From IMG/VR virus record IMGVR_UViG_3300022562_001204, positions 78,551 to 142,550 of that record: DNA of 64,000 bases; one strand, 5' to 3'. The notes beneath the pieces were generated by a model, which was given only the letters and a program-made list of their open reading frames with translations, had not been told where the DNA came from and did no database searches. The position numbers and the translations under genes were made by a program. This DNA is from a virus. Its lineage: Duplodnaviria; Heunggongvirae; Uroviricota; Caudoviricetes. Below are positions 533 through 49,693 of this stretch, in pieces; position 1 is the stretch's first letter, and every line of letters begins with the position of its first letter.

Positions 533-544
533 CCTTTATATATG
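533..544 (-). promoter_or_regulatory. A/T box + SD gene-start motif (CATATATAAAGGAA) before 57..521
   Basis: Plus strand reads cctttatatatg. One of 11 or more close matches to the CTCCTTTATATATG consensus. Confidence 0.4.
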
Positions 545-1087
545 TCAGGCAACAAGCGCCTGCATTTCTTCTGGACGGAGTTGTCCAGTCAGCTTCAACT
601 CGTACAGCGCAAGAAGGTCCTGGATGGAGAGCTTCTTGAGGCCAGCAAAGTCGGATTCTTCCTCGGCTGACAAATAAATGAGTGCCGCACGCTCTGGCGG
701 GAAGATGTCGGCCAACTTGGGACCCCAGACGGATTCCCGATGACTGCGCCAGCGCTGGCTACGGAAACACTCGGCAGTCCGGACAAAGGTCTGGACGAGC
801 GCCATGTCCGGGTCTTCCCAGGAGCGGGTGGTCTCATAGCGGTGGTAGCCTACCGCCTTGGGGCGGATGGTGGTCATCACCTTGGTTCCCATCTGGACGA
901 CCGTGATACCGGCGGGTAGCTCGACCATGGCCAGGCTGCGCAAGGCTTCAGAGAGGGACTCATGACGTGTTTCGGTGCCGTAGGTCTTTCTGTATCCATC
1001 GGCGGTGGGCATGTAATCCAGTTCAGTCACCTGGATGCCCCGGTAGTTTTTGACCCAACCGAACGTTTTGTCATGAGAGTCAGTCAT
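545..1087 (-). CDS. hypothetical protein (180 aa)
   Basis: Long minus-strand ORF with a TGA stop, in register with its neighbours. No motif recognised. Confidence 0.5.
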   Translation of the reverse strand: MTDSHDKTFGWVKNYRGIQVTELDYMPTADGYRKTYGTETRHESLSEALRSLAMVELPAGITVVQMGTKVMTTIRPKAVGYHRYETTRSWEDPDMALVQTFVRTAECFRSQRWRSHRESVWGPKLADIFPPERAALIYLSAEEESDFAGLKKLSIQDLLALYELKLTGQLRPEEMQALVA

Positions 1088-1184
1088 CTGCTTTCTCGCT
1101 GTGTGTGGTGAATACCAGAGGATTCATAACACTCCGAAGGGTGTCTTCGTATTGAATATGTCGTACTGAGAAACTTTATAAAGA

Positions 1185-1214
1185 CCACCAGGAGCCTCTA
1201 GAGGCTCCTGGTGG
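1185..1214. terminator. perfect 30-nt palindrome (stem-loop) downstream of gene 1235..2533
   Basis: ccaccaggagcctctagaggctcctggtgg read directly. No U-tract follows. Confidence 0.4.
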
Positions 1215-1234
1215 TCCATGCCGTGAGGCGGGTG

Positions 1235-2533
1235 TTACTCGGCGCTGGAGCCTTGAATATTGGCGATCGACATGCCGATGTACTTCGTGGCATTTGCGAA
1301 GCCAGCGTAAGTTTCGGCCGGAAGCCTCATGTAGAAGTTGTTCATGATTCGCACACTCTGAGAGAGTATGAACTTCATGGTGTTCATTTGGGACCTGGAC
1401 AACTTCTTCAAGTCCTTCGAAGTACGATTGAAGTTCTGAAGGATGGTCTTAAGGTCACCCTTATCGGCCTTGACAGAGGCGTTAGCCTTACGAATCTCGG
1501 AGATGGCCGAGAGAAGTTCCTTGGCCAACGGAGCGATTTCGTTGGGTTTCAGAGCCGTCGCCGTCACCACCTGCTTCCGTGAATTACTGGGTCTGATCCA
1601 GGTAACGATAAACGGAATACCGTAAATCGAAGCGGGAATGGCGGATTTCGACAGAACGATACCACCGATCAGAGGACCCCGAGCCTCGTGGGTGGTTGAC
1701 TGAACCGAAGCGGTAGCTTTCGGAATGCCGTTGAAAAGCTTTTCTTCAACAGAGGTAAAGGTTTTGGCGGCTTTGGTCGCGTCGTCTTTCTCCATCGAGC
1801 TCTTCTGAAAGCCTTCGATTGCCGAAACAAGAGACTCTTTGGACGCGCTGACGAGTTTCACGGAGGAGACCGTGCGTTCGATCAGTTCGCTCAACGTTTT
1901 GGCGTTGGCCTGGGTTCCGTCACCGATCGCCCGGGCGATGGCCTTCGATTTGAACTCCGTGGCCTTCATCTCGCCTTTCAGCGACTTGGCCTGGGCTGAG
2001 TACTGCGTCAGCTTCTGCTCGAGATCGACATACTTGGAGTCGAGAGAAGCGAACAACTTGACGAAGGCGTCGCCAATCGCCGCCAGTTTCTTGAAGACAT
2101 TGCCGAGGATCGATTCGGAGGTCTTCTCGACACCGTCTTCCAAGGCCAGCTTGGTGGCGGCCAAACGCGACCGGGGGGACTGGAACGATTCCATACTCGG
2201 CAGGGACTTCCGGAGTTTGGTCGGCATGCCAAGACGATCACGGATCGACTCAATGGCCGTCTCAACCATTTCGGCAGCCTGGGGATCCAGACCTTCACCA
2301 GAATCGATTGCCGGCTGAATGGCCTCTTCGAGGTTTTCCAGAGTGGCCAGTGCTTCGAGACCGACCTCCACACCGGCCATGTTGTCGCTGGCGACAACGG
2401 CATAGCCGTCCATCTCGGCCATGGCGTCATCCAGTTCCGAGTGGGACGACAGGACGTCATCCTGGGCTGCGTCACCTGGGTTGAGTTCTTCCAGATCTGC
2501 GTCTTCGAGTGAAAAGAAAGTATTCTTCGACAT
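1235..2533 (-). CDS. acidic coiled-coil protein, paralog 1 of 3 (family with 2671..4044 and 4058..5257)
   Basis: The ORF track runs to 2635. The probable start is the ATG at 2533 (MSKNTFF), preceded by a GAGG SD. It shares the motif block E(T)AIESIRDRLG with the two plus-strand paralogs. TAA stop. Confidence 0.55.
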   Translation of the reverse strand: MSKNTFFSLEDADLEELNPGDAAQDDVLSSHSELDDAMAEMDGYAVVASDNMAGVEVGLEALATLENLEEAIQPAIDSGEGLDPQAAEMVETAIESIRDRLGMPTKLRKSLPSMESFQSPRSRLAATKLALEDGVEKTSESILGNVFKKLAAIGDAFVKLFASLDSKYVDLEQKLTQYSAQAKSLKGEMKATEFKSKAIARAIGDGTQANAKTLSELIERTVSSVKLVSASKESLVSAIEGFQKSSMEKDDATKAAKTFTSVEEKLFNGIPKATASVQSTTHEARGPLIGGIVLSKSAIPASIYGIPFIVTWIRPSNSRKQVVTATALKPNEIAPLAKELLSAISEIRKANASVKADKGDLKTILQNFNRTSKDLKKLSRSQMNTMKFILSQSVRIMNNFYMRLPAETYAGFANATKYIGMSIANIQGSSAE

Positions 2534-2670
2534 AGCGGCCTCTATGAGGATTGGAGATGAGAAATTCGATGGCGCAGAGCTGCACTCAAAAGATAGTAAG
2601 GTATACTGGTTTAGATATTCTCTGGTAACCAACAACCTGTGTCCACCCTTCCTATAAGGAACTAAAACGT

Positions 2671-8060: not shown

Positions 8061-8093
8061 AGTGAGTTTCCTTTAAAAAAGAGATAGCGATGA

Positions 8094-8124
8094 CTCTACA
8101 GAGACGTGTCCGGTCTCTGTAGAG
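8094..8124. terminator. stem-loop ctctacagagac/gtctctgtagag
   Basis: 12-bp perfect inverted repeat in the gap between 8060 and 8144. Confidence 0.35.
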
Positions 8125-8143
8125 TATATGCTGCCATGTTTCT

Positions 8144-9216: not shown

Positions 9217-9223
9217 CTCCCAC

Positions 9224-9237
9224 TCCTTTATATATGC
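9224..9237 (-). promoter_or_regulatory. CATATATAAAGGAG gene-start motif before 8662..9216
   Basis: Exact ctcctttatatatg on the plus strand, 3' of the hairpin at 9239..9262. Confidence 0.4.
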
Positions 9238-9238
9238 C

Positions 9239-9262
9239 AGAGCCTGGGAGATCCCAGGCTCT
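9239..9262. terminator. stem-loop agagcctggg-agat-cccaggctct
   Basis: Perfect 10-bp inverted repeat sitting between the stop at 9273 and the A/T box plus SD at 9224..9237. Confidence 0.4.
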
Positions 9263-9272
9263 GTATGCCGAC

Positions 9273-13044: not shown

Positions 13045-13140
13045 CGTTCACCTCCTTACTAATATAAAGGAGTTGCTGGCTATCTTTTCCTACCACACCG
13101 AGGTTTGTGTCCATACATCACTCGCCGAGACGGCATAAAG

Positions 13141-13172
13141 CCCTCCTACCTGGCCGAAACCAGGTAGGAGGG
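13141..13172. terminator. stem-loop directly 3' of the tRNA
   Basis: ccctcctacctgg-ccgaaa-ccaggtaggaggg: a 13-bp perfect stem 5 nt after the tRNA CCA end. Confidence 0.5.
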
Positions 13173-13177
13173 CAATG

Positions 13178-13252
13178 TGGTGGCGCTAGAGGGACTCGAA
13201 CCCTCGTCTACGTGTTTAGAGCACGTCGCTCTTACCGCTGAGCTATAACGCC
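13178..13252 (-). tRNA. tRNA with anticodon CUA (amber/UAG suppressor), isotype undetermined
   Basis: Folded by hand from the reverse complement GGCGTTATAGCTCAGCGGTAAGAGCGACGTGCTCTAAACACGTAGACGAGGGTTCGAGTCCCTCTAGCGCCACCA. A 7-bp acceptor stem, a GCTC/GAGC D-stem, an ACGTG/CACGT anticodon stem with loop CU-CUA-AA (U33 and A37 present), a T-stem GAGGG/CCCTC with loop TTCGAGT, discriminator A and an encoded CCA are all present. Confidence 0.75.
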
Positions 13253-13916: not shown

Positions 13917-14306
13917 CTACGGGACTAGGTTGGTCCCGATACTCGTCCACTTCATCCGGATGTCCTCTATGTCATCCGGGGGTAAGAACCAGCATTCCTT
14001 GAGCAGCTTATCAAGGATGGGGTTTTGCTGGGAGGCAAAGAACCCCATCAGCAACTTCTGGCTCTCTTTCGAGAAGACCCCCTCTTTCAAGCAGGCCTTC
14101 ATGAAATCGTGGGAGGGTAACTGACGTCCTGTCTCGACATGGCTGATCCGGCACTTGCTGTACCCAAGGAGGGGAGCCAGACTGGGCATCGTGTGCCCGG
14201 CATCATGCCGGACCTGTCGTAGCGCTTCCCCAAAGGTCTTCGGATTATCGGGCCGTTTCGTCCCGTGCCGATAGGTAGTCTTCTTGGGGCGTTTCTTTCG
14301 AGGCAT
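13917..14306 (-). CDS. helix-turn-helix DNA-binding protein (Cro/C1-like)
   Basis: A basic N-terminus (MPRKKRPKKTT) is followed by FGEALRQVRHDAGHTMPSLAPLLGYSKCRISHVETG, consistent with an HTH_XRE fold. The stop is TAG. Confidence 0.5.
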   Translation of the reverse strand: MPRKKRPKKTTYRHGTKRPDNPKTFGEALRQVRHDAGHTMPSLAPLLGYSKCRISHVETGRQLPSHDFMKACLKEGVFSKESQKLLMGFFASQQNPILDKLLKECWFLPPDDIEDIRMKWTSIGTNLVP

Positions 14307-14382
14307 ATCTTTTCCCTATCAGAGATGGAACCTCAGTTCCTCATGTAGAATATGTATAACCGAAAAAATCTTGAAGAGACGA

Positions 14383-14408
14383 GGAGAGACCCCCTAGGGG
14401 GTCTCTCC
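14383..14408. terminator. stem-loop ggagagaccccc-tag-ggggtctctcc
   Basis: Perfect 11-bp stem. Confidence 0.4.
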
Positions 14409-14416
14409 TTAGCTGA

Positions 14417-15137: not shown

Positions 15138-15168
15138 GAGAGGAGAGGCCCCCAGGGGGCCTCTCCTC
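15138..15168. terminator. stem-loop gaggagaggcccc-cag-ggggcctctcctc
   Basis: 13-bp perfect stem. The T10 run lies on the plus-strand 5' side, so it is not a canonical intrinsic terminator for minus-strand transcripts. Confidence 0.35.
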
Positions 15169-15177: not shown

Positions 15178-16074
15178 TTAACCTTTGTTTGGCGGTAGAC
15201 CAAGCAGCTGGACACTTCCGACCGCCACCCGGCTGTACCCTGACTCAAACTCCTCCCTCAGAGAGGGTTCGTCTGCACGCTCGAGGGGGTGTCTGCTCCT
15301 GGGGTCGTTCGGATTCTCACTGTAGACCCGGTACTCGTACCCGTCTTCCCGTTTCACTACGAAGCTGTCCTTATGCTTGGGATCCTCGGCATGGGTGCAA
15401 CTGACAAGCTGCCATCTCAGGCCATAGAGGTTCACATAAGACCGTGAATCTTTCGGGTTGTCGTCCACGATCCTTGAAAGTTGCATCGAAAAGACTGATG
15501 TGACGAAGAAGGTTTCGACGATACGGACGACTTTCTCGAACCCCACCTTCATTTGCATCTCCACAACCTTCAGATTCCCGACAACCGTCGTTTTCTGCTC
15601 TTCAGGGATTGATTCGTTCTCCCCGTACGTCTTAACCCAGTGATTGTCGGCGATGTATCGAACGGTGTAACTCCGGCTGTTCGAAAGTCGATCACCATAA
15701 ACACAGGTGGTCATTCGACCGAGTTCGTCGTACTCCATCCGGTAGCTTTCTGGGTGAAACTGATTACCATCGACCACATAGGTGACGATATTTCCCGCCT
15801 GGTTCAAGCCAATCCTCGCCTGCTGCCCAGGCGTGTTGTCAAACTCCGAACAGTGGTCGTCCGTGTATGAGCTGACAATCCTGTTAAAGTCGATGTTGGA
15901 CATCTTGGTTTCCTTTTGAAGTGTCGATGACAGTGGATGCTTCGAGTAGAGTATGCCTAACTGAAATTTTAACAAACGGCATAAGCCCCCAGGACCAAGC
16001 TTGGTCCTGGGGGAGGGGAGGAAGCAGAGACCTGCTGTCGGGGTAACCAGGCCTTGGTCATTCGTTCCGGGCAA
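15178..16074 (-). CDS. protein with recurring DPxxPxSY-type motifs, paralog of 14417..15112
   Basis: 298 aa with a TAA stop. Motifs GNQFHPESYRMEY, DDNPKDSRSYVNLY, AEDPKHKDSFVVKR and SENPNDPRSRHPLER are visible. Confidence 0.5.
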   Translation of the reverse strand: MPGTNDQGLVTPTAGLCFLPSPRTKLGPGGLCRLLKFQLGILYSKHPLSSTLQKETKMSNIDFNRIVSSYTDDHCSEFDNTPGQQARIGLNQAGNIVTYVVDGNQFHPESYRMEYDELGRMTTCVYGDRLSNSRSYTVRYIADNHWVKTYGENESIPEEQKTTVVGNLKVVEMQMKVGFEKVVRIVETFFVTSVFSMQLSRIVDDNPKDSRSYVNLYGLRWQLVSCTHAEDPKHKDSFVVKREDGYEYRVYSENPNDPRSRHPLERADEPSLREEFESGYSRVAVGSVQLLGLPPNKG

Positions 16075-16598: not shown

Positions 16599-16651
16599 GG
16601 CTCCTCCTTGAGACGAAAGAGACCCGGGACGTCCCGGGTCTCTCGTTCTCG

Positions 16652-17110: not shown

Positions 17111-17352
17111 ACGTAGGTATCCTTGTTCTTCACGTAGTGCTTGTTGGCACCACCGGGCGGCACACAGTACATCTTGCCGTGATCGAAGTGGGAGATGCCC
17201 GTGACACCTTTGGAAGTGACGAAGATGCCGGTCAGGTTCATGAACAGGCACTTCAAGAGGCGGGGGATGCGATACATAATGACTCCACAGTGTAGCAGGA
17301 CCTCTGCACATGATCCCTGGGTGAAACCACACAAAAAGAAAGACATAGCCAT
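17107..17352 (-). CDS. small Cys-rich protein (81 aa)
   Basis: Five Cys and several His residues. Translationally coupled (ATGA) to 16652..17110. It starts right after the 17353..17380 stem-loop. Confidence 0.45.
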   Translation of the reverse strand: MAMSFFLCGFTQGSCAEVLLHCGVIMYRIPRLLKCLFMNLTGIFVTSKGVTGISHFDHGKMYCVPPGGANKHYVKNKDTYV

Positions 17353-17380
17353 ACAGCCCGGGTCTATCCCGGGCTGTATG
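17353..17380. repeat. stem-loop element acagcccgggtctatcccgggctgtatg (near-identical second copy at 49666..49693)
   Basis: Read directly. The two copies differ at one or two positions. Confidence 0.5.
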
Positions 17381-17388
17381 GTGTCATA

Positions 17389-17866: not shown

Positions 17867-17880
17867 CTCCTTTATATATG
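17867..17880 (-). promoter_or_regulatory. CATATATAAAGGAG gene-start motif before 17389..17865
   Basis: Exact ctcctttatatatg, 3' of the hairpin at 17891..17916. Confidence 0.4.
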
Positions 17881-17890
17881 TCAGTATAGC

Positions 17891-17916
17891 AGAGTAGGGT
17901 GGATCCACCCTACTCT
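17891..17916. terminator. stem-loop agagtagggtgg-at-ccaccctactct
   Basis: 12-bp perfect stem located between the stop at 17929 and the A/T box plus SD at 17867..17880. Confidence 0.4.
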
Positions 17917-17928
17917 GTAGAGACCCGC

Positions 17929-19527
17929 TCAGTACCCCGTGATCTGATAGTTGATCTGTCGACCGTCCACCATGGCCTGGAGGGTCAATGGAGTCGTGCA
18001 GTTCTTTCCGACCGCCATCATAACAACCGACTCCCCGGGCGTTGAAGGACCAAGCCTCCTGCCATCACTCATTTGTTCGACAACCTTACGGACCGGATAC
18101 AATTCCGGAATGGTGCGTTCCGGAAAGATAGAGCCTGAGGTCTCGAACCTCAGGTAGCCGTCCTTGAGAACCAGAAACCGCTGGCTATCCGTCGAGTCTT
18201 TCCCCCAACAGCTTGGGATCGTGATGACACCTCCCACCTCAACAGGTTCTTCGCGTAACAGCCCCCATGTCTTATGTTCGACTGGGTAGGACAGCGTAAA
18301 ACTGACAAAGTGGTTTCCGTGAGAGAAGATACATGGAGCTTCCGGGTAGACTGCCGTGGTCAGACTGTGGGCGCCCACGAAGTAATCCCCAGTCGGTACA
18401 AACAGCAGCTTCGTCACTCTCGGAAGGATATCTTTCTCGAAATCGCGCCAGATGAGAGACCTGCCGTCGATCGGCCCGCTGTCACCAACGTTGTTGGCAG
18501 ATTTCTTGAGTCCCAGTAAGATGTCCTCCTTCTCCTGGACGACCTCGACAACCGGTTTCCAGACGAACCCTTCTTCCGGGATGTCTGAGAACGTTGCCAG
18601 TCGGCGTTCGAAGGACTTGGCTAGTCCAAGCTCGTCGACTATCTTTGACGCCTGCTCCAGGGTACCGTCGGATGCTACACTTGTGGGGCGCATGTAGACG
18701 GTCGGCTTCGTACGTTCCAGGAAATTCTTCTTGGCCGTACTGTACCCAACCCGGGAACAGTCATCGAGGTAAACCCCTACCACCGACATGGCAATATGGA
18801 TATACGCCGATGATTTTGTACCCACTTCACGCCAGATCAGGTTCTCACGGACGTTCCCCCGCGCTTTCTTCAGTTTGGCTTTGAGCACTTCAAGCCACTG
18901 AACTACCAGCGACTGGAACTCAAACTTCCTGAGCGCTGAGTCGAAAGCAAACTGCTGACTGGCCTGCTTGATGACCAGTTCCGAGGTCGTGTTGATAAAC
19001 CGACTGAGAGTATCGTGAGTCTGGATGGACTCGCGCATGTCGGCGGATGCCGTGCTAATACGGAGGGATGACCTGAAGTAACCATTGACGGGGACCGAGA
19101 GGTGATCGAAGCCACCGCTGGTCTCAACCCCAAGCATTTTCTGTCGGTTCCCAAGCTTATCCGAGCCTTTGATGTAGAAAACTGACCGAATCTTAGCGGA
19201 TTCGACCAGCTTCTTCAGGTTTCGAACGGCGTTCTGGTACTCTTCCGGGCAGGTCTGGGTTTCCGTCTCCAACTGCCACAGCAGAGACACCACCTCACCA
19301 GTCTCAGTGATGGTTGCCAGGCTACCGTACTGCTCCAGGAAGGATAGGCAGCAGGTACAGACGAACTCCGGGCAGGCTTCCTCCGGGAAGCCCAGCAGGT
19401 ACGCGTCGTTCAATACGACCTTCTTGATGTTCATCACAAATACCGGCGTATCGGTCGTCATCTTGCTGTCCAGAACATGCCGGATGTACTGGACGAAGTT
19501 GTGGAAATTGTTGGTTTCGATTGTCAT
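17929..19527 (-). CDS. large hypothetical protein (~532 aa)
   Basis: The ORF track extends to a TTG at 19605. The ATG at 19527 (MTIETNNFHNF) follows GAAAAGGAAAGATCACC. TGA stop. No motif recognised. Confidence 0.5.
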   Translation of the reverse strand: MTIETNNFHNFVQYIRHVLDSKMTTDTPVFVMNIKKVVLNDAYLLGFPEEACPEFVCTCCLSFLEQYGSLATITETGEVVSLLWQLETETQTCPEEYQNAVRNLKKLVESAKIRSVFYIKGSDKLGNRQKMLGVETSGGFDHLSVPVNGYFRSSLRISTASADMRESIQTHDTLSRFINTTSELVIKQASQQFAFDSALRKFEFQSLVVQWLEVLKAKLKKARGNVRENLIWREVGTKSSAYIHIAMSVVGVYLDDCSRVGYSTAKKNFLERTKPTVYMRPTSVASDGTLEQASKIVDELGLAKSFERRLATFSDIPEEGFVWKPVVEVVQEKEDILLGLKKSANNVGDSGPIDGRSLIWRDFEKDILPRVTKLLFVPTGDYFVGAHSLTTAVYPEAPCIFSHGNHFVSFTLSYPVEHKTWGLLREEPVEVGGVITIPSCWGKDSTDSQRFLVLKDGYLRFETSGSIFPERTIPELYPVRKVVEQMSDGRRLGPSTPGESVVMMAVGKNCTTPLTLQAMVDGRQINYQITGY

Positions 19528-22239: not shown

Positions 22240-22253
22240 CTCCTTTAAATATG
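22240..22253 (-). promoter_or_regulatory. CATATTTAAAGGAG gene-start motif before 21692..22234
   Basis: Plus strand reads ctcctttaaatatg, 3' of the hairpin at 22258..22279. Confidence 0.35.
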
Positions 22254-22285
22254 TAAGGGGTAGTCCCTATGGGACTACCTTGTGG

Positions 22286-23404: not shown

Positions 23405-23417
23405 CTCCTTTATATAG
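23405..23417 (-). promoter_or_regulatory. CTATATAAAGGAG gene-start motif before 22286..23398
   Basis: Plus strand reads ctcctttatatag, 3' of the hairpin at 23427..23459. Confidence 0.35.
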
Positions 23418-23480
23418 CGCTGCTGACTCCCCTCGGACCTATACCGGGTCCGAGGGGAGTATTGGCTGACTTACTGAATG

Positions 23481-28486: not shown

Positions 28487-28500
28487 TTCCTTTTATATAG
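28487..28500 (-). promoter_or_regulatory. CTATATAAAAGGAA gene-start motif before 27956..28480
   Basis: Plus strand reads ttccttttatatag, 3' of the hairpin at 28514..28546. Confidence 0.35.
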
Positions 28501-28513
28501 ACGGTAAGACAAC

Positions 28514-28546
28514 ATAGACGCCATGGGACTACCCCATGGCGTCTAT
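28514..28546. terminator. stem-loop atagacgccatggg-actacc-ccatggcgtctat
   Basis: 14-bp perfect stem. Confidence 0.4.
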
Positions 28547-28550
28547 GGAC

Positions 28551-28943: not shown

Positions 28944-29317
28944 CCGTCCTGCTCCGTCTTGATCAAGAGATCGAGACAGTCACCCGTGATACTGGGGTCC
29001 AAGACTTCCGTTGTCATAATGCAGGTGTCCTTCCTGCCGAGTACCCCCCGGATCGCGTCTTTGACCGTCCCAGCTGAGGGTTTCCTCAGAAGATACCGGA
29101 GAATCAGACGACGGCCCCGGGTCTCCCGACGAATCGTCAGGAGTTCGCGGATCATGCTGGGTGAGATCAACTCCATTGGGATGCCATACAGGTTATGAAT
29201 CGCCAACTTCACCAGAAACACGGTGTGGCGCGTCAGCATCTTGGTCGACTTGATCACTATAAACCCTTTCATTATAACGAAGGTGGGGATACCTCCAAGT
29301 AGAGTATACCTAATCAA
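28940..29317 (-). CDS. hypothetical protein (125 aa; start uncertain, TTG 29317 or ATG 29272)
   Basis: Minus-strand ORF with a TGA stop. A stem-loop lies just upstream at 29326..29345. Confidence 0.4.
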   Translation of the reverse strand: MIRYTLLGGIPTFVIMKGFIVIKSTKMLTRHTVFLVKLAIHNLYGIPMELISPSMIRELLTIRRETRGRRLILRYLLRKPSAGTVKDAIRGVLGRKDTCIMTTEVLDPSITGDCLDLLIKTEQDG

Positions 29318-29353
29318 AAAAAGAAAGGAGGGGATAACCCCTCCTCTATTCAG

Positions 29354-29680
29354 TTAGAAGTGACGACGTCTGACGATTTTGGTCATATCCTCGTTATATT
29401 CCAGGACGATGACGTGGGATATCGGCAGCTCCATACTGTTCTTCGGCGTATATACGAACCTGAGGGTCTTTTGCCGGGGCTTGGATTCAATCAGCGTGAT
29501 GGAACTGGCCGCCTCTAATGGACCCTTAGGGTCCTCCTTCAGGAGTCGGAGCCAGTTCTCTACCATTGCTTTGAAGAACTTCCAGTCGCCTTGCAGAGCT
29601 TCGAAGGTTTCTGCGTCAGCTTCCTTCTCAAGAATCCGGAAAATGTCTTGGTATCGAGTCGTCAGGGGTCGGTTCATCAC
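29354..29680 (-). CDS. hypothetical protein (108 aa)
   Basis: TAA stop. Confidence 0.45.
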   Translation of the reverse strand: MMNRPLTTRYQDIFRILEKEADAETFEALQGDWKFFKAMVENWLRLLKEDPKGPLEAASSITLIESKPRQKTLRFVYTPKNSMELPISHVIVLEYNEDMTKIVRRRHF

Positions 29681-34917: not shown

Positions 34918-34931
34918 CTCCTTTATATATG
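34918..34931 (-). promoter_or_regulatory. CATATATAAAGGAG gene-start motif before 34233..34910
   Basis: Exact ctcctttatatatg. Confidence 0.4.
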
Positions 34932-35010
34932 TCGTTCAAAAAGAGAGCCGGAAATGGAAGTTCTCGTCAGGAATCGAGACCGAACCTCTCTTCGTGTTTC
35001 ACCAACTTCC

Positions 35011-35412: not shown

Positions 35413-35593
35413 GGTGTTATTCCTCTGTATAGCGTCAATAAAAATAGAGCCAGCTCCTTGCCGAGCTGGCTCAGTCCACCTACCCAGGATCGGGCGGTGG
35501 TTGCGGAATAAAAAGCGGCGACGGGCTCGGGATTAGAAGCTTCGACGCCGAAGAGCATCCGGTCTCGTGGAGAGTATATCTCGCCGTAGTTCT

Positions 35594-36254: not shown

Positions 36255-36268
36255 CTCCTTTATATATG
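36255..36268 (-). promoter_or_regulatory. CATATATAAAGGAG gene-start motif before 35594..36247
   Basis: Exact ctcctttatatatg, 3' of the hairpin at 36274..36307. Confidence 0.4.
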
Positions 36269-36273
36269 TCAGC

Positions 36274-36307
36274 ATACCCCCACGAGACCTATTCTCGTGG
36301 GGGTATG
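36274..36307. terminator. stem-loop catacccccacgaga-cctatt-ctcgtgggggtatg
   Basis: 14-bp perfect stem. Confidence 0.4.
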
Positions 36308-39512: not shown

Positions 39513-39988
39513 GGTGAGTTTCCTTTTGTCAGGCACTTACGGTTCTTGAAAGACCAGGCTGTAAGGCCCAGTAGTGGAAAAGGTGCCGCAATGAAGAGAT
39601 CGTTACACTGGGTGAACGCCAGTACGCCCATCATGATCAGACGGGCATACGTAGGGAGGGGTAACCAGGCATTGAACAGAATCGTGATCCCGATCGCCAC
39701 CGTCAGGGCAGAGATGTTTCGAACGATGTGTTCACAACCGGATACCCACGCCTCGCTGTGGCTAATGCTGAGCCAGCTGAACGCCCCAGCGGTGGTAATC
39801 AACTCGAAGAACCCAGACCCTCCGATCAGCAGCAGCACCATGACCCAGAGGTTCTTTTTGAACATGGGTTTCGATAAAGGGTAGTAGATGCCCTCCAGGA
39901 ACATCCGACAGCCATAGATGAAGATACCCCCCTGCATGAGCAGGAGGGTATAACACATCACTTCACGCACATACAGAGAGATCACCAC
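39485..39988 (-). CDS. small polytopic membrane protein 8 of 8 (167 aa)
   Basis: GTG start after AGGAGGACCCAA. TGA stop. Confidence 0.5.
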   Translation of the reverse strand: MVISLYVREVMCYTLLLMQGGIFIYGCRMFLEGIYYPLSKPMFKKNLWVMVLLLIGGSGFFELITTAGAFSWLSISHSEAWVSGCEHIVRNISALTVAIGITILFNAWLPLPTYARLIMMGVLAFTQCNDLFIAAPFPLLGLTAWSFKNRKCLTKGNSPWTIPPSSS

Positions 39989-40470
39989 TTGGGTCCTCCT
40001 GAGATGGGTTCATACGTGACCACAGGGCCGATGAGATCCCGAGGGGTCACTACTGGAGTGACCCTGAGACGCATCTGGCATGCCGTATACAGCCTGAAGT
40101 AGATCAGCTCCTGCGGGGAGGTCCCATGAAGATCCCACCCGTAGAGGTGAGCCTTCACAAAGAACGCTGAGAGATTCTTACGATAGACCCCGATGGGACC
40201 ATCGTTCTTCATCAGCATGATGCCATTGTACTCGTCGCTCTGGATCCACTCATGGCCATGGCGGTCGATATACGTCGGCGTAGGGCTGATCGCGGTCAGC
40301 CCCTCGTTTGCGGTTCCTTCGCGGTAGGCCACTGTCAACATCAGTGGCAACTCGGCCAGGTTTCCCATCCCCTCGCAGGGGAATTCGTTATACTTCTGCC
40401 CTTTGAAAGCATAGAAGTATTCCGGTCTGGCCCGATGGAGTTTGTTACCCAGGATTCTGCGAAGGTTCAT
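39982..40470 (-). CDS. hypothetical protein (~162 aa)
   Basis: The ATG at 40470 (MNLRRILGN) follows TGTCATAAAGGGAACCAAC. TGA stop. Confidence 0.5.
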   Translation of the reverse strand: MNLRRILGNKLHRARPEYFYAFKGQKYNEFPCEGMGNLAELPLMLTVAYREGTANEGLTAISPTPTYIDRHGHEWIQSDEYNGIMLMKNDGPIGVYRKNLSAFFVKAHLYGWDLHGTSPQELIYFRLYTACQMRLRVTPVVTPRDLIGPVVTYEPISGGPKW

Positions 40471-40521
40471 GTTGGTTCCCTTTATGACAACATAGAGGAG
40501 AGGCATCCCTCTCCCGAAGAA

Positions 40522-40764: not shown

Positions 40765-41040
40765 AGTCCCTGTTCACCTATCAAATCCCCAGGACCTCTA
40801 GGTCCTGGGGCTATGCCATCTATTTTATTTTCTGGCGGGAAACCCTAGCCGAATCTAGGGCACCCGGTTATGCTAAGGAAACCCCCAGGTACAGTACCCG
40901 TACCCGGGGTCGGGCTTTAGTAGGTGGCGTTCCCAGGCGAGGGAAATGCGAGGGACTGGCAAAGTTTCATAATAGCCATTCGGGGCGCAGGCCAGGCTCG
41001 CAAGTTGCCACCTCAGGAAGAGGAGCTCAAGCATCGAGGT

Positions 41041-42618: not shown

Positions 42619-42666
42619 TTGAAAACTCAGTGCATGTCCATAAGAAGTATATAGTGCCGAGATTCC

Positions 42667-43247: not shown

Positions 43248-43505
43248 TCAGCTGGCCAGGTAGACCCGCTTCAATGTCGAGGTTTCACCTACATTACTGT
43301 ACATGGTCACCAACTTCTGGGTGGTCAAGTCGTAATAAAGATAGGCTTTTGATGTGTCCCCAGTAACGTCATTCTGATCGGTGATGGTATACACCCCTGA
43401 TCCAGAGCTCAACGGAACCATGGTAAAACGTTTCACTGTGAAACTCACTGGGTTCGGAGCGATGGTGATGTCCTGAACCAGCGAAGTATAACCGAGCGTA
43501 TCCAT
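43248..43505 (-). CDS. small protein downstream of fibre gene, copy 1 (candidate fibre assembly/chaperone)
   Basis: 85 aa. It is about 65% identical to 44561..44818 (shared MDTLGY...GDTSKAYLYYDLTTQ.LVT.YSNV.ETSTLKRVYLA) and is coupled to the upstream gene through GGAGGTGAT-ATG. Confidence 0.5.
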   Translation of the reverse strand: MDTLGYTSLVQDITIAPNPVSFTVKRFTMVPLSSGSGVYTITDQNDVTGDTSKAYLYYDLTTQKLVTMYSNVGETSTLKRVYLAS

Positions 43506-43506
43506 A

Positions 43507-44553
43507 TCACCTCCAGGGTCCGGTGATGTCGATCATGGCGTATCCTTGACCGACCCCTACATTCGAACTCGAATTGGTAACCCAGGTGCTTGTGTTGATA
43601 TAGCTAGATATCCCAACGATCATGAAGACCCGGTCTGTCATCCCTGTCACGTTAGTGAGGAGAATGTCGGTACCTGGCGACGCAGTAAGTTGGTCGTATA
43701 ATCCAGGGACAGCACCTACAATACGAGTGGTGGCCTCGGTTGGGATCTCTACCACATACACGGGTCTCGCAATGACACCAACGCCTTGTGAGTTCGGAAC
43801 TCCTAGTGAGTACCGTCGATATCCAAGACCGTTGTTGAGATAATCATCAATGTCAGTTGATGTGTTAATTAAACCTCTTGCAAAATCACTGGTGAGGTGC
43901 GCGTAGGGATTTACGCTAGAGCCGTCATACAGTTTCCAGGTCCTAGCGACTCTAGAATTAGTGCTGCTATTACTGATATAGGAAAGTCGCCCGTACCGAT
44001 TGTAAACACCCGGGAGGTTAGCTGCCGGGTCGAGATCGGTAATATCCCCATAAGTAGTTGCTGCATATGGGTGATCCCCAAAGGCAACCAAATCCCCGAA
44101 GAAGTACCCAGCGGCGAGTGTTGGGACGTCGGCATCCGGGTATGTGAAGAGATGAAAGCAATACTCGTCAGCGAATAACTTCCAGGGTCTCGTGGTCGTT
44201 GAGAGCTCGTCTGACTTGGTGATCGGAGACCCCTGGGTGTAGAGGGCGAGACCGTAGGCATTGGTGCCTGTGTCGATATCGGTCATCGTCTCATACGCGA
44301 TCCAACCCGCTTTCATGGCAGTATACGTGGCAGAAAATGCCGCGTCATCCTGAACACGGAGGTAGTGACGGTAACCCAGCAACGGTCTGAAGACCGCTAC
44401 GTTCGTCCCGGTGAACTCCTCGGACCAGCCGACAGGAGACTTTGACCCATACCCGTCTATCAGGCAGGCCCTGAGCACATCGAGTAGCGTACCGGCGGTA
44501 CCGCTGAGGGTAGGCGCGTCAGTGTCATCAGAATAATAGGCATATACCGTCAT
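43507..44553 (-). CDS. tail-fibre / receptor-binding-like protein, copy 1
   Basis: 348 aa. The N-terminal ~150 aa is near-identical to that of 44820..45863, with a divergent centre and a conserved C-terminal IDITGPWR. TGA stop. Confidence 0.55.
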   Translation of the reverse strand: MTVYAYYSDDTDAPTLSGTAGTLLDVLRACLIDGYGSKSPVGWSEEFTGTNVAVFRPLLGYRHYLRVQDDAAFSATYTAMKAGWIAYETMTDIDTGTNAYGLALYTQGSPITKSDELSTTTRPWKLFADEYCFHLFTYPDADVPTLAAGYFFGDLVAFGDHPYAATTYGDITDLDPAANLPGVYNRYGRLSYISNSSTNSRVARTWKLYDGSSVNPYAHLTSDFARGLINTSTDIDDYLNNGLGYRRYSLGVPNSQGVGVIARPVYVVEIPTEATTRIVGAVPGLYDQLTASPGTDILLTNVTGMTDRVFMIVGISSYINTSTWVTNSSSNVGVGQGYAMIDITGPWR

Positions 44554-44560
44554 AGTCGCT

Positions 44561-44818
44561 TCATCCTGCTAGGTAAACACGTTTAAGTGTGGAGGTCTCA
44601 GCGACGTTGCTGTAGATCGTCACCAGTTGTTGGGTGGTCAGGTCATAGTAGAGGTACGCCTTGGACGTATCTCCGGTCCCTGAGTCCACGTCCTTGGCCG
44701 AGAAAGCCAGTGATCCATCCGCCAACGGCACCACGGTCGGCACCTTTCTCAGAAATTCCACGGGACACTCTGACTGGAGTGGTTGGATAAAGAGTGAGTC
44801 GTACCCAAGCGTATCCAT
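44561..44818 (-). CDS. small protein downstream of fibre gene, copy 2
   Basis: 85-aa paralog of 43248..43505. Confidence 0.5.
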   Translation of the reverse strand: MDTLGYDSLFIQPLQSECPVEFLRKVPTVVPLADGSLAFSAKDVDSGTGDTSKAYLYYDLTTQQLVTIYSNVAETSTLKRVYLAG

Positions 44819-44819
44819 A

Positions 44820-45863
44820 TCACCTCCAGGGTCCGGTGATGTCGATCATGGCTGAACACTCCGCATTCGTTAAAGAGGCAGAGCCCTCCATAGCCCAATT
44901 ACTAGCATTGTAATAACCGCTGACCCCTATTGTCAGAAACACCCGGTCCGTCATACCGGTCACATTGGTAATCAAGGTTCGGTGAGCTGGGGCTACAGTG
45001 AGTTGATCATAGAGTCCAGGAATCGCACCAGTAATTCGACTCGTAGCCTCTGTAGGGGTCTCCACCGCGTAAACGGGTCTTGCAATGACGCCTACACCGC
45101 TCGAGTTTGGAGTACCTATCATCCAACGACGTTTACCCAGCGAGCTTTCAACGTTATAGATTGCGTTCACTGAGCTAGTCACATATCCTCGGACGAACGT
45201 ACTGGTCAGCTTTATGGGCATATTAACGGTCGTCCCATCAAAATTCCCAGCTGCCCTAGCCCAGAACATCCCATCCCCAGTCGCACTCAGTGAACACATG
45301 GGCGAGTACCGGTTATAGACAACCGGCTGCCCCGTGGGGTCTCCATCAACGACATCGCCGTAAAGCAGTGTTGAATACAGATGTCCGCCATAAGCGACGG
45401 CATCTCCAAAGAAGTATCCAGCCCCAGAAGTTGGATTATCAGCATCTGGATAGGTAAACAGGTGGAAACAATACTCATCACCAACGAGGATCCAGGGACG
45501 TGTCGTGGTAGAGAGTTCATCCGACTTGCTGATGGTCGACCCTTGGGTGTACGTGGCGAGACCGAAGGCGTCGGTGCCTGTGTCGATATCGGTCATGGAC
45601 TGATACCCGATCCACACGGCCTTCATCTCGGTATAGGTGGTCGATACAGCACCATCATCCTGGATTCTCAGGTAATACCGACGTCCTTGAGGAGCACGAA
45701 ACACCGAGACGTTCGTCCCAGTGAACTCCTCCGACCAGCCCAGAGGGTCGATGCTGCCATACCCGTTGACCAGGCAGGCTTTCAGAACGTCCAGAAGGGC
45801 ACCAGCGGTTCCGGACAGTACCGGAGCCCCGGAGTCGTCGGAGTAGTAGACGCGTACAGTCAT
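44820..45863 (-). CDS. tail-fibre / receptor-binding-like protein, copy 2
   Basis: 347-aa paralog of 43507..44553. Confidence 0.55.
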   Translation of the reverse strand: MTVRVYYSDDSGAPVLSGTAGALLDVLKACLVNGYGSIDPLGWSEEFTGTNVSVFRAPQGRRYYLRIQDDGAVSTTYTEMKAVWIGYQSMTDIDTGTDAFGLATYTQGSTISKSDELSTTTRPWILVGDEYCFHLFTYPDADNPTSGAGYFFGDAVAYGGHLYSTLLYGDVVDGDPTGQPVVYNRYSPMCSLSATGDGMFWARAAGNFDGTTVNMPIKLTSTFVRGYVTSSVNAIYNVESSLGKRRWMIGTPNSSGVGVIARPVYAVETPTEATSRITGAIPGLYDQLTVAPAHRTLITNVTGMTDRVFLTIGVSGYYNASNWAMEGSASLTNAECSAMIDITGPWR

Positions 45864-46376: not shown

Positions 46377-46389
46377 TTCCTTATATAGG
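46377..46389 (-). promoter_or_regulatory. CCTATATAAGGAA gene-start motif before 45899..46369
   Basis: Plus strand reads ttccttatatagg. Confidence 0.3.
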
Positions 46390-46493
46390 GGTGTAATCCT
46401 TGACACCATTGGATCCCTGGTCAAGACTGATGAAAAAAAAAGAATGAGAGAGGAGCCTAGGCTCCTCTCTCTCTCTCTCACTACACCCGCTAC

Positions 46494-46835: not shown

Positions 46836-46967
46836 GATAAACTCCTTAGATAGTTGATTGAGCGTCTGGGGGAACAGAGCGCTCGATGTGACAGATTCCT
46901 CTGTCTTTCTTCAAGTTGAATATATCTAACTGAAATTTTCTCAAAAGGGGAAATGTCCCTCCAGACC

Positions 46968-47002: not shown

Positions 47003-47161
47003 TCACTTCAACATCCACGTCCCTCGACGCTGCAGCTTACGCTTGTTACGGGCCTTGCGGTTGGTTTGCAGCGGCCTGTACGAGACCCTGTACCGCACAA
47101 CAGGAGAACCCAGGGTGTGGTAACAGCTAACGACATCGCAGTCGGTAAAGAAGACGGTCAC
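47003..47161 (-). CDS. candidate small basic protein (52 aa) missed by the 60-aa ORF cutoff
   Basis: Hand-translated from the reverse complement as GTG-TVFFTDCDVVSCYHTLGSPVVRYRVSYRPLQTNRKARNKRKLQRRGTWMLK-TGA. TAGGAGAACGCT precedes the GTG. The gene is flanked by the stop of 47182..47598 on one side and a stem-loop on the other. Confidence 0.3.
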   Translation of the reverse strand: MTVFFTDCDVVSCYHTLGSPVVRYRVSYRPLQTNRKARNKRKLQRRGTWMLK

Positions 47162-47181
47162 AGCGTTCTCCTACAAGTGGG

Positions 47182-47598: not shown

Positions 47599-47673
47599 GG
47601 GGGTTCCTTCTATGGATTGACAGTATAAGCATGCCAGGGACTACTCCCTAGCATGCCCAGTATTTGGAATTGT

Positions 47674-48135
47674 TTACAGTTTACAGCTGGCCAGTTCAGG
47701 GCCGAGGATCAACACCACCGAGACCTTCTTGGTCCCCGCGTCATACAACTTCTTCAATCGGTGGTTTCCGTCCAGGACGTAGTACTTCCCGGACTCCTTG
47801 ACCGCGATGATGGGGATACTGGGATCCGCCTTGGTTACCCTGGCAGTATCCAGATCCTCCATGACGTTCCACTTCAGGTCGTCCATTGAGACCTGCGTGG
47901 GCGTTCTGCCTTCGACCAGCTCGAAGACTTTATTCAGGGAGTACGGCTTCCCGTGATGTGTGAAAATTGAATCTTCTTCCTGATAGGCTTCATGAGCCTT
48001 TTCCCGCTTGGCTTTCTTGGCTTTCTCGATCTTGGCCATGGTCCCGTAGATATACGCATTCTTGCGATCCCCGGTCAGACCCTTTTCGTCGGCTTCCTTC
48101 TCTAACTTGTCATGCAGTTCCTTGGGCATCTTCAT
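47674..48135 (-). CDS. ParB-like nuclease (ParB/Srx-fold) domain protein
   Basis: The likely start is ATG 48135 or 48129 (MKMPKELHDK). The C-terminal IIAVKESGKYYVLDGNHRLKKLYDAGTKKVSVVLI fits the ParB N-terminal domain consensus (y.lidG.hRl.Aa..G...vpv.v). TAA stop. Confidence 0.45.
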   Translation of the reverse strand: MKMPKELHDKLEKEADEKGLTGDRKNAYIYGTMAKIEKAKKAKREKAHEAYQEEDSIFTHHGKPYSLNKVFELVEGRTPTQVSMDDLKWNVMEDLDTARVTKADPSIPIIAVKESGKYYVLDGNHRLKKLYDAGTKKVSVVLILGPELASCKL

Positions 48136-48187
48136 TCCTCGACATAAAAACAGGCATTGGGCTTCCCACCCAATGCCTGTCATGACG

Positions 48188-48670
48188 TCATTCGACATCC
48201 AAGATACGGTACGGACCCATGTAAGTGGGTCTGAGTATGTCATCGACGATCGGGGCGGTCAGCAGTTTACCGTAATCCTTCACCAGGATGGTGAGATGGG
48301 TTTGCTTGCTGTCGTGCCAGAACGTCTTCATGAACTTGAAGCTGGACGGCCGACCCAGCTCCTGACCGATACGCTCCAGTTCACTCAGAACCTCGAGTGA
48401 TTTCTCAACCTGGCACGGATACTCCAGTTTCTTGAGAGACAGCTTGAGGTGATTGATGAGATCTTCAAACGAGTTGAAGTGCGTATAATCCCGCGTAACT
48501 ACGTATCCCTGAGACATGTTAAAGCCCACTGAAATTGGAAGAGGTGACAGACTACCCTTCGTCCATGAGCGAGTCAAATCCCATTTACCCCGGCCTACAC
48601 ACGGCCGTGACTCTGTCAACCGACGACCTTGTCGTACCGCTATACTACGGCATTTCCGACATCCACGCAT
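48188..48670 (-). CDS. hypothetical protein
   Basis: The ORF track gives 160 aa, but an internal ATG near 48517 (MSQGYVVTRDY) is plausible. TGA stop. Confidence 0.45.
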   Translation of the reverse strand: MRGCRKCRSIAVRQGRRLTESRPCVGRGKWDLTRSWTKGSLSPLPISVGFNMSQGYVVTRDYTHFNSFEDLINHLKLSLKKLEYPCQVEKSLEVLSELERIGQELGRPSSFKFMKTFWHDSKQTHLTILVKDYGKLLTAPIVDDILRPTYMGPYRILDVE

Positions 48671-48793
48671 CTACTTAGGCCATCGTACTGCTGATTCAGC
48701 TTACCTTGTACGTATACAGCTCCTTCGTCAAATGGATGTAACCCATAGTATCCTACCCAGGACTCTACTTAGAGGTCCTGGGTAGGAGAGTTT

Positions 48794-49207
48794 TCACTTG
48801 TCGAGATTGGAGAGATACGCTGAGATGGCTTCTTCCGTACGACTATCCGAACGGACGATGGCGTCGATGGTCTCCTCGTCATAACCCAGTGACGGACCGC
48901 AGATGACCAACAAAGCCTTGATCTCGGGGAGATACACCGGGTCCTTGATCATGAGGTATTCCCTACCGAGAACCTCCACGACCTGAGAGAAACTGGCAGA
49001 TATCGTCGGCAAGGCAGTCGGTAGGTCCGTAGGGAGCATGTCGCATCTCTTAAGCCCTACCAAGGATTCGCTGACGACGAAATAGCACATCTCCATCAAC
49101 CACTTGAAGTAATCGGGGATCTGAAGCTGGTCGATCTGCTCCTTGGTGTAGAGTGGATAGTCTTCCCAATACTTCTCACTGAGCTCAGACATGGGTCTCT
49201 CAGTCAA
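48794..49207 (-). CDS. hypothetical protein (137 aa, TTG track start)
   Basis: TGA stop. Confidence 0.45.
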   Translation of the reverse strand: MTERPMSELSEKYWEDYPLYTKEQIDQLQIPDYFKWLMEMCYFVVSESLVGLKRCDMLPTDLPTALPTISASFSQVVEVLGREYLMIKDPVYLPEIKALLVICGPSLGYDEETIDAIVRSDSRTEEAISAYLSNLDK

Positions 49208-49643
49208 AGATTGAACGGATGATATCGACAGCGGACTCGGCCACCTGACCGGTCAGGGTCTTACGGTCCTTTCGTTCAGGTCGCTTGTCGAAGATCTCGG
49301 TCACGGTATCCAGCAGTACGTCCACACCTTCGATGCAGTCTTGGACGGGTGTGCCGACTGCCACGTCAACTGTCGTCCTGACGGCAGCTTCTGTGAAAGA
49401 GGTCTGTCGGGGCGGCGTGGGAGCGGGGCGTTTTGGCTGCTTCTTGGGGACGGATGCGATGACATTGTCCAGTTTCCGTTGAGTGGCGTCGATCTTGTCA
49501 CAGAGTTCCAACAGTCGATGACGACGTTCGGCGTCGGTTCGAAGAGCCTTGATGGATTCCCTCAGAGCTTCGATGGCCCCCGGATACCCTTTGACATCCT
49601 TGAGGTGCCTCAACTCCATGGGTCGAATCTTTGGATCAGCCAC
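49200..49643 (-). CDS. hypothetical protein (147 aa)
   Basis: GTG start after TATATATAAGGAGTCAC. TGA stop. Confidence 0.5.
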   Translation of the reverse strand: MADPKIRPMELRHLKDVKGYPGAIEALRESIKALRTDAERRHRLLELCDKIDATQRKLDNVIASVPKKQPKRPAPTPPRQTSFTEAAVRTTVDVAVGTPVQDCIEGVDVLLDTVTEIFDKRPERKDRKTLTGQVAESAVDIIRSIFD

Positions 49644-49648
49644 AGTGA

Positions 49649-49661
49649 CTCCTTATATATA
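49649..49661 (-). promoter_or_regulatory. TATATATAAGGAG gene-start motif before 49200..49643
   Basis: Plus strand reads ctccttatatata, 3' of the hairpin at 49666..49693. Confidence 0.35.
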
Positions 49662-49665
49662 CAGC

Positions 49666-49693
49666 ATACAGTCCGGGTCTATCCCGGGCTGTA
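49666..49693. repeat. second copy of stem-loop element acagtccgggtctatcccgggctgtatg
   Basis: Near-identical to 17353..17380. Confidence 0.5.

Follow-up and report, generated by a model that had tools for sequence, protein, structure and literature searches.

Phages of the phiKZ-like group carry their own virion RNA polymerase (vRNAP) for early genes and use a non-virion RNA polymerase (nvRNAP) for middle and late genes (PMC7598289). The vRNAP promoters have an extended, conserved AT-rich element with the transcription start 6 nucleotides (nt) downstream (PMC5312081). At the phiKZ nvRNAP promoters only four bases (TATG) are conserved, and such sigma-less promoter recognition is poorly understood (PMC7598289, PMC12809450). 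This TATG overlaps the start, with G as +1, and is bound under the beta-lobe of gp123 (PMC4666361, PMC12809450). The middle and late promoters of these phages have been stated to be unpredictable bioinformatically (PMC7598289). Another compact arrangement is the promoter-early stem-loop (PeSL) of T4-like phages, in which a stop codon, a stem-loop, a conserved promoter, a Shine-Dalgarno sequence (SD) and a start codon follow one another (PMC2839356, PMC4122927). Here we describe a recurrent gene-boundary element of a virus known from the IMG/VR record IMGVR_UViG_3300022562_001204. The sequence examined was a stretch of 64,000 nt (positions 78,551 to 142,550 of the record; the window) plus 10 kb past window position 1, that is, 74 kb of the genome of about 257 kb. 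We use the name M1 for a TATATAA box fused to an SD, and M2 for a second motif that resembles the early promoters of phiKZ. M1 can be read from sequence and is a candidate for the non-early promoters of jumbo phages, which are poorly understood. The closest described kind to the whole unit appears to be the PeSL, and to its putative promoter the start-overlapping late element of phiKZ.

The exact 14-mer CTCCTTTATATATG (CATATATAAAGGAG in the minus sense) occurs in four copies (9223, 17867, 34918 and 36255), with none expected from shuffled sequences, and with up to two mismatches there are eight sites against 0.11 expected. The composite TATATAA-N(0-2)-GGAR was found nine times in the window, where 0.05 would be expected, and every copy is in the minus (coding) sense. 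Together with near variants at 22240 (TATTTAA) and 32415 (CTATAAAA), the window has 11 sites. These coincide with the 11 positions listed in the initial annotation (533, 9224, 17867, 22240, 23405, 28487, 32415, 34918, 36255, 46377 and 49649), all of which hold, and its main claim, a regulatory signature at gene starts that is phage-specific and strongly conserved, stands. The 10-kb extension holds two more sites, one straddling window positions 1-4 and one at -4703, giving 13 gene-proximal sites in 74 kb. A crude gene call gave about 82 genes, nearly all on the minus strand, and about one gene in seven begins behind M1. The sites and the hairpins upstream of them are as follows.

1..4, minus strand: first bases of M1, CTGTATATATAAGGAGTCTTATG, running off the window; precedes the phiKZ gp59 orthologue, about 30 nt downstream of M2 at 32-41
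531..546, minus strand: M1 with SD, TGACATATATAAAGGAA, 9 nt to the ATG of gene 521-57; its TGA ends the upstream gene; without hairpin
9223..9236, minus strand: M1 with SD, CATATATAAAGGAG, 6 nt to the ATG of gene 9216-8662 (184 amino acids (aa), without known relatives)
9238..9263, minus strand: hairpin, perfect 11 bp, 1-2 nt before the box, without T-run
17867..17882, minus strand: M1 with SD, GACATATATAAAGGAG, 7 nt to the ATG of gene 17859-17389
17890..17917, minus strand: hairpin, perfect 12 bp, about 10 nt before the box, tail CTATACTGAC
22240..22253, minus strand: M1 variant CATATTTAAAGGAG, 5 nt to the ATG of gene 22234-21692
22259..22279, minus strand: hairpin, perfect 9 bp, 5 nt before the box
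23405..23418, minus strand: M1 with SD, GCTATATAAAGGAG, 6 nt to the GTG of gene 23398-22286
23426..23460, minus strand: hairpin, perfect 14 bp, about 10 nt before the box, without T-run
28487..28501, minus strand: M1 with SD, TCTATATAAAAGGAA, 6 nt to the ATG of gene 28480-27956, the head of a five-gene run
28513..28547, minus strand: hairpin, perfect 15 bp; its 3' end and tail, CTATGTTGTC, match the phiKZ-type TTATKYYGT (PMC10914365)
32415..32427, minus strand: M1 variant CTATAAAAGGAA, 8 nt to the ATG of gene 32407-31547 (Band_7/SPFH); upstream hairpin weak
34918..34933, minus strand: M1 with SD, GACATATATAAAGGAG, 7 nt to the ATG of gene 34910-34233; preceded by CTCTCTTTTT, without a strong hairpin
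36255..36270, minus strand: M1 with SD, GACATATATAAAGGAG, 7 nt to the ATG of gene 36247-35594
36273..36307, minus strand: hairpin, perfect 15 bp, ending in GTATG and followed by CTGAC (phiKZ-type tail TATGCTG), 5-6 nt before the box
46377..46389, minus strand: M1 with SD, CCTATATAAGGAA, 7 nt to the ATG of gene 46369-45899 (M78 peptidase-like)
46446-46471, minus strand: hairpin, 11 bp with a T9 run, further upstream of the M1 at 46377
49649..49661, minus strand: M1 with SD, GTATATATAAGGAG, 5 nt to the GTG of gene 49643-49200
49665..49695, minus strand: hairpin CATACAGCCCGGGATAGACCCGGACTGTATG, imperfect, tail CTGT (TATGCTGT terminator tail), near-identical to 17349-17381

Every in-window site precedes the ATG or GTG of a minus-strand open reading frame (ORF). 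The gap from GGAR to the start codon is 4-9 nt, and a properly spaced SD is found at all 13 sites, although five of them carry GGAA, which is weaker than GGAG. The heptamer TATATAA is exact at 11 of the 13, two to four A residues separate TATAT from GGA, and 8-14 nt lie between the end of the box and the start codon, with GGAG within the first six. The box is predicted to be unpaired. Conservation covers 14-17 bp and ends at the edges of the box, and there is no paralogy among the genes behind it; thus the recurrence of M1 is not a by-product of duplication. One M1-like sequence at 62165-62185 (minus strand; CATATAGCTAAGGA, with a 3-nt insertion) lies directly after a terminator; the real SD of the 1074-aa tail gene behind it is about 27 nt further downstream, whereas every other box-like copy is fused to a functional ribosome site.

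M1 and M2 were defined by k-mer enrichment, in which TATATA and its extensions ranked top for intergenic over genic sequence, and by targeted patterns; a de novo expectation-maximisation motif search of the intergenic regions, the kind of check first proposed for the box, recovered nothing but the SD and a T/A-rich flank 5' of it. Six further degenerate boxes reported at the outset (20675, 8065, 9925, 30165, 40475 and 52025) do exist, but they share only ATAA(A)GGA, which is near the general ribosome-site consensus of this genome, (T)AAAGGAG. A codon-shuffle test for TATATAA in coding sequence, in both orientations, gave an expectation of about one copy, too few for depletion to be seen. A depletion of TATG in coding sequence was dropped because it reflected a general avoidance of TAT/TA.

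Megablast against the phage collection found no relative at the DNA level, and the same sequence is present on JGI and Logan metagenome contigs, with the protein encoded at 17929-19527 of the window located on a contig of 257,149 bp. Pfam detected in the window three homologues of phiKZ internal head proteins and one fragment of a phiKZ capsid domain, and the extension carries syntenic orthologues of phiKZ gp59, gp65 (SbcD-like), gp66, gp67, gp68 and gp69. Moreover, in metagenomic relatives (36-43% identity in gp68), chimallin and fragments of RNA-polymerase beta/beta' are encoded nearby. Because of this synteny, the head-protein homologues and these relatives, the source is by sequence an orphan jumbo phage of about 257 kb in the phiKZ-like nucleus-forming (chimallivirus-type) group, with a protein identity of only about 40% to its nearest relatives. 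In phiKZ, gp68 is the fifth subunit of the nvRNAP (PMC4666361), and the presence of its orthologue shows only that an nvRNAP exists in the source phage. The five nvRNAP subunits are gp55, gp68, gp71-73, gp74 and gp123, and the vRNAP subunit genes of phiKZ are middle genes. A chimallin orthologue of the source phage itself was not among the matches listed; the corresponding gene of phiKZ, gp54, has an early together with a middle promoter (PMC8244752). Protein searches with a DUF8224 protein of the window matched only itself plus one protein at 28%, and those with a window tail protein gave distant domain matches only.

With regard to the hairpins, the initial annotation had placed perfect stems without a U-tract upstream of most exact boxes. 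This is true of six of the 11 in-window sites, where a perfect stem (9-15 bp) without a T-run ends 1-15 nt upstream of the box, while a seventh stem (49665-49695) is imperfect and the adjacent hairpin is weak or absent at the remaining four sites (542, 34929, 32426 and 46387). The distance from hairpin to box is variable, so the two are separate modules. The phiKZ terminator, as mapped by ONT-cappable-seq, is a GC-rich hairpin followed by YTTATKYYGT (PMC10914365). In the window, (T)TATG(C/T)(C/T)G stands at the end of or after 8-10 of 26 strong intergenic hairpins. It is found as TATG(C/T)TG at three of the seven strong hairpins upstream of M1 (28513-28547, 36273-36307 and 49665-49695), and as (T)TTATG(C/T)(C/T)G also at 56518-56555, 48150-48180, 13140-13173, 15986-16013, 17349-17381, 1183-1216 and others. 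The TATG copies near M1 belong to these terminator tails, and the same signature is seen in the sequences of phiKZ, FLC9 and Xoo-sp14. The hairpins without a U-tract are thus probably, at least in part, terminators of the phiKZ type. On the other hand, about half of the hairpins upstream of M1 (those ending at 9263, 22279, 23460 and 17917) differ from the phiKZ terminator in having neither the published tail nor any T-run. Where terminator tails lie just before M1, transcription from upstream is expected to be reduced.

Some other features of the hairpins were observed. Two of them at distant boundaries, 17349-17381 (CCATACAGCCCGGGATAGACCCGGGCTGTATGG) and 49665-49695 (CATACAGCCCGGGATAGACCCGGACTGTATG), are almost identical, and a family of the form GGAGAG(A/G)CCCC...GGGG(T/C)CTCTCC with the tail (T)CGTCTC is found at 14382-14409, 15140-15168 and 16618-16643. 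The start of gene 39982-40506, called by simple ORF rules, is probably mis-set, as the hairpin tail TCTATGTTGTC followed by ATAAAGGGAACCAACATG (region 40464-40510) suggests that the true start is an ATG near 40464, in line with the initial annotation.

The second motif, M2, consists of a T-rich tract and then TTAGA-TATAYTCWAC-N2-GARG, with about 13 intergenic copies in 74 kb.

46915..46924, minus strand: M2, aaatttcagttagaTATATTCAACttgaag, early-promoter-like, phiKZ type
32-41, 1151-1160, 8119-8128, 14345-14354, 15946-15955, 29299-29308, 35569-35578 and 42642-42651, minus strand: further M2 copies
About 11236 and about 16854 of the extension sequence: M2 copies in the 10-kb extension

M2 is placed mostly right after a T-run hairpin and is followed by a leader of 30-100 nt with an ordinary SD. 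It resembles the TATATTAC promoters of phiKZ, including the upstream aatttcag...tt context (for example, aatttcagattTATATTACtaagg in phiKZ against aatttcagttagaTATATTCAACttgaag in the source phage). It stands upstream of the gp68 orthologue, matching the position of TATATTAC in phiKZ and in Burkholderia phage FLC9, and is kept as ACATATACTYTAC...TG in four related metagenomic phages of 36-53% GC. Since the nvRNAP genes are early genes in phiKZ (PMC4666361) and vRNAP promoters have the published architecture given above, homology and synteny would assign M2 to the early (vRNAP) promoter class. M1 is likewise AT-rich, highly conserved, phage-specific and often right after a terminator, as are the early promoters of phiKZ and AR9 (TATATTAC and AAATATATATTAT-N6-G, respectively), but it has neither the TATATTAC-like element nor the T/A-rich tract, both of which M2 has, and it is M2, not M1, that precedes the gp68 orthologue.

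It is evident that the two motifs are distributed in a complementary manner. Among 28 intergenic hairpins, M1 follows eight, M2 follows eight and neither follows 12, and the two stand together only once, before the gp59 orthologue. The M1 units span one to five genes, and 10 of the 13 are bracketed by hairpins on both sides. First genes led by M2 have an ordinary SD and no TATATAA box, and thus the box is not a general ribosome-site feature of first genes. In a pair of paralogues that are 70% identical, gene 36247-35594 keeps a perfect M1, whereas in gene 35412-35011, which lies behind M2, the box has decayed to GCTATACAGAGGAA. Two M2 regions have unusual layouts: at 35413-35593, a terminator-like hairpin (35447-35472, with T-run) stands no more than about 100 nt behind M2 and before the gene, and at 8061-8143, M2 is overlapped by the hairpin 8093-8125. 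Both resemble what has been described for phiKZ 5' untranslated regions (5'UTRs), namely leaders with premature termination and short non-coding RNAs.

The explanation that we favour, with about an even chance of being right, is a composite cassette at gene boundaries, in which a terminator, a non-early promoter and a ribosome site are combined and transcription starts in or just after the box. The GC-rich hairpin would be a terminator or attenuator of the upstream transcription unit. M1 would be the promoter of a second, non-early class, read by a phage multisubunit RNA polymerase (most plausibly the nvRNAP), and AAGGAG would be the ribosome-binding site. We infer the promoter identity of M1 from the complementary distribution of M1 and M2, the high information content of the box and the lack of a sigma-70-like signal. 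In 20 kb, sigma-70-like promoter calls numbered seven against 11.4 expected, and a host sigma-70 promoter at M1 was rejected because no call fell there. The start point follows from another argument: the SD must be in the message yet lies only 2-4 nt past the box, so that transcription would begin within or just after it. M1 would then be an initiator-type element, and the leaders, very short at about 12-16 nt, would open with the SD. In its most specific form, namely that TATATAA is a 7-bp nvRNAP initiator of the middle or late class with messages starting at the SD and 5'UTRs of about 12-16 nt, the proposal is tentative and well short of an even chance. Poxviruses and African swine fever virus have start-overlapping A/T-rich late initiators just before the start codon, which is a functional analogy only.

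The precedent for a start-overlapping element is the TATG of phiKZ. The phiKZ late promoter and M1 belong to the same phage group, and both are short, A/T-rich and without a -35-like partner; the overlap with the start belongs to the phiKZ element (PMC4666361, PMC12809450, PMC7598289) and, for M1, only to our reading of it. M1 differs in having TATA(T/A) instead of TATG, in conserving 7-14 nt instead of four, so that it can be read from sequence alone, and in being fused to the SD, whereas the leader of phiKZ P119L is about 48 nt. It also differs in not standing before the recognisable virion genes of the window.

Several observations weigh against the cassette, and the last of them favour an element that acts on RNA. 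Leaders of 12-16 nt would be unusual for the group, in which 5'UTRs are mostly 31-40 nt in phiKZ (PMC8244752) and leaders are 26-491 nt in AR9 (PMC5312081), and that of P119L is long as well; the start site of M1 is purely what we infer. Neither the middle motif of phiKZ (AAanTTACc) nor the late motif of AR9 (AACA-N6-TA/G) is similar to M1 in sequence. None of the window's recognisable virion genes has a strict M1 (tail proteins, 62141-52948; internal head proteins, 5257-1235; the capsid-like fragment), and therefore M1 is not a general late structural promoter. The TATATAA-SD box was not found in 43 kb of a relative of 52-53% GC that keeps M2. Start codons lie within 8-22 nt of the hairpins at 48180, 16643, 12510, 43242 and 38630, which leaves no room for a promoter; hairpin read-through is therefore common, and the M1 genes may do without a promoter of their own. 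Site 542 is inside an operon without an upstream terminator, and site 4 is in a leader of normal length downstream of an M2 promoter. There are no free intergenic copies of M1, the box being always fused to an SD at correct spacing, as an RNA-level element also predicts. In FLC9, an unrelated conserved box, GAAACAAGGAG (GAAAC(A/C)AGGA(G/A)), occupies the same SD-fused position at seven of 42 genes (boxes at 5185, 7276, 15265, 20923, 25056 and 33829 of the FLC9 sequence compared), once directly after a hairpin; this possible counterpart of M1 hints that SD-fused boxes may work at the level of translation in these phages.

A/U-rich enhancers 5' of the SD are known from the T7 gene 10 leader and S1 binding, and the target sites of T4 RegA and RegB overlap the SD. 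It is possible, though we give it clearly less than an even chance, that the box similarly works in leader or intercistronic RNA, as a translational enhancer together with the SD or as the operator of a phage factor. Candidates for such a factor are a phage-encoded RNA-binding regulator, a ribosome-associated factor or a nuclease. M1 would then mark a translational regulon of mostly small accessory genes, and the hairpin would be only a 3' stabiliser or terminator of the upstream message. Besides the SD-fused position and sites 542 and 4, the predicted unpaired state of the box and the many hairpins of the genome that must be read through agree with this, and M1 shares with the known enhancers an A/U-rich unstructured tract directly 5' of the SD. 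However, such enhancers are loosely defined in sequence and those of the S1 type need A/U richness only, yet TATATAA is exact at 11 of 13 sites, so that a sequence-specific factor would be needed. The generic A/U-rich enhancer suggested by the initial annotation is weakened by this near-invariance and by the M2-led first genes without a box. In addition, the absence of the box from these genes and its decay in the paralogue behind M2 form the pattern expected of interchangeable promoters, and the box is paired with the weaker GGAA at five of 13 sites, which also speaks against an action on RNA.

That the unit is mainly a recombination linker is improbable. In this explanation, the hairpin and the box would be PeSL-like homology patches that shuffle accessory cassettes, with regulation secondary. 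The order of stem-loop, box, SD and ATG, preferentially before small genes without relatives, fits the description of PeSLs (PMC2839356, PMC4122927); both are repeated, mostly before small genes annotated without function in variable regions. The region is almost without homologues elsewhere, and near-identical hairpins are seen at the distant boundaries 17349-17381 and 49665-49695. On the other hand, only 14-17 bp are conserved in M1 against about 100 bp in PeSLs, and the hairpin sequences mostly differ. PeSL promoters are sigma-70 early promoters for the host polymerase, whereas M1 is not sigma-70-like and belongs to a group with phage polymerases. Other contigs of the same phage are 99.97-100% identical and thus offer no strain variation in which exchanges could show, the M1 genes share their GC and third-position GC (GC3) contents with the rest of the genome, and two of them (the orthologues of gp59 and gp66) belong to the conserved core.

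In the T4 late promoter, TATAAATA, which depends on gp55, gp33 and the clamp, the start lies 6-7 nt downstream. The initial annotation compared the box with the -10 element of this promoter; its idea of a middle or late promoter agrees with the cassette that we favour, but the analogy itself fails, because the start would fall after GGAG, 1-8 nt before the start codon, and exclude the SD. We give very little credence to such a -10 element of the T4-late or vRNAP type, with a start 6-7 nt downstream and near-leaderless messages that do not use the SD. TATATAA(A) is like the T4 late element, though no M1 site reads TATAAATA, and the 5' half (A)CATATA is common to M1 and M2. TATATAA(A) is also like the AT-rich vRNAP elements of phiKZ and of AR9, AAATATATATTAT-N6-G (PMC5312081). 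Against this, the position of the start would be variable and never at the AUG, the SD at 13 of 13 sites would be discarded, and no leaderless transcripts were found in phiKZ (PMC8244752). The vRNAP reportedly does not tolerate even one departure from its consensus (PMC5312081), and beyond TATA on the 3' side M1 and M2 disagree at most positions. The 74 kb yielded no gp55-like factor, and PHROG scans of 30 proteins gave no sigma-like match. Finally, the box as the U/A tract of the upstream terminator (its distance is variable and three sites carry tail and box in series), hairpin promoters of the N4 type (hairpin sequence and spacing are not conserved) and an antisense phiKZ-type TATG (CATATATA, reverse complement TATATATG; the C is present at only six of 13 sites) were all rejected.

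The genes behind M1 are mostly small and without known relatives, seven of the 10 tested having no PHROG match, and they include the Band_7 and M78-peptidase-like genes and the gp59 and gp66 orthologues. A literature search on PHIKZ059 and PHIKZ066 for the temporal class of such orthologues yielded nothing. A middle-type or accessory-gene class is our best guess for M1, and it rests on little. Related phages keep M2 but are without M1, and thus M1 is lineage-specific: besides the relative of 52-53% GC, the TATATAA-SD box was not found in 43 kb from two AT-rich relatives that keep M2. Exact 17-mer scans of public viral and metagenome contigs gave single chance matches only, with no genome of clustered M1 among the matches listed, and the strain variation around M1 in the other contigs of the phage was not informative.

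If M1 is a second promoter class, its long, near-invariant element should be tractable for the biochemistry and structure of promoter recognition, and as a promoter it would help to annotate the transcription units of uncultured jumbo phages. If it is the nvRNAP initiator proposed above, it would be the first nvRNAP promoter class of a jumbo phage that is predictable bioinformatically, and the start recognition of the nvRNAP, TATG in phiKZ, would have been retuned and lengthened in a sister lineage within an unusually compact cassette. If it acts on RNA, it would define a sequence-specific translational regulon in nucleus-forming phages, where selective translation is actively studied. In either case, an orphan jumbo phage has a readable regulatory grammar of phiKZ-type terminators, an early-type motif and M1.

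Some other observations were made in the window. A tRNA at 13178-13252 (minus strand) has the anticodon CTA of an amber suppressor (ARAGORN label tRNA-Pyl; Rfam tRNA, 72.7 bits). TAG is the rarest stop codon (8 of 80), and two in-frame gene pairs are joined across a single TAG, 13044-12709 with 12705-12520 (beside the tRNA) and 38594-38244 with 38243-37764. The tRNA and these pairs suggest programmed amber read-through or a partial reassignment of the stop codon. Long intergenic regions of 174-370 nt at 40765-41040, 29258-29627, 14091-14416 and 48620-48793 are highly structured according to RNAfold (for example, -111 kcal/mol for 276 nt) and have no Rfam match; gene calls for 14091-14416 differ between sources, one of which calls an HTH_31 gene. 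These regions are possibly non-coding RNAs or missed small genes.

A 239-aa protein encoded at 51302-52021 has a domain of the phiKZ major capsid protein and aligns only to residues 233-344 of phiKZ gp120; a split capsid gene was rejected in favour of a fragment-sized paralogue. Tandem duplications are found at 43248-45863, 52948-58917 and 55302-62141. They include a duplicated gene pair (85 aa and about 348 aa) whose two copies are 61-63% identical, two 784-aa tail-protein paralogues of 39% identity, and a domain repeated several times between proteins of 380 aa and 1074 aa.

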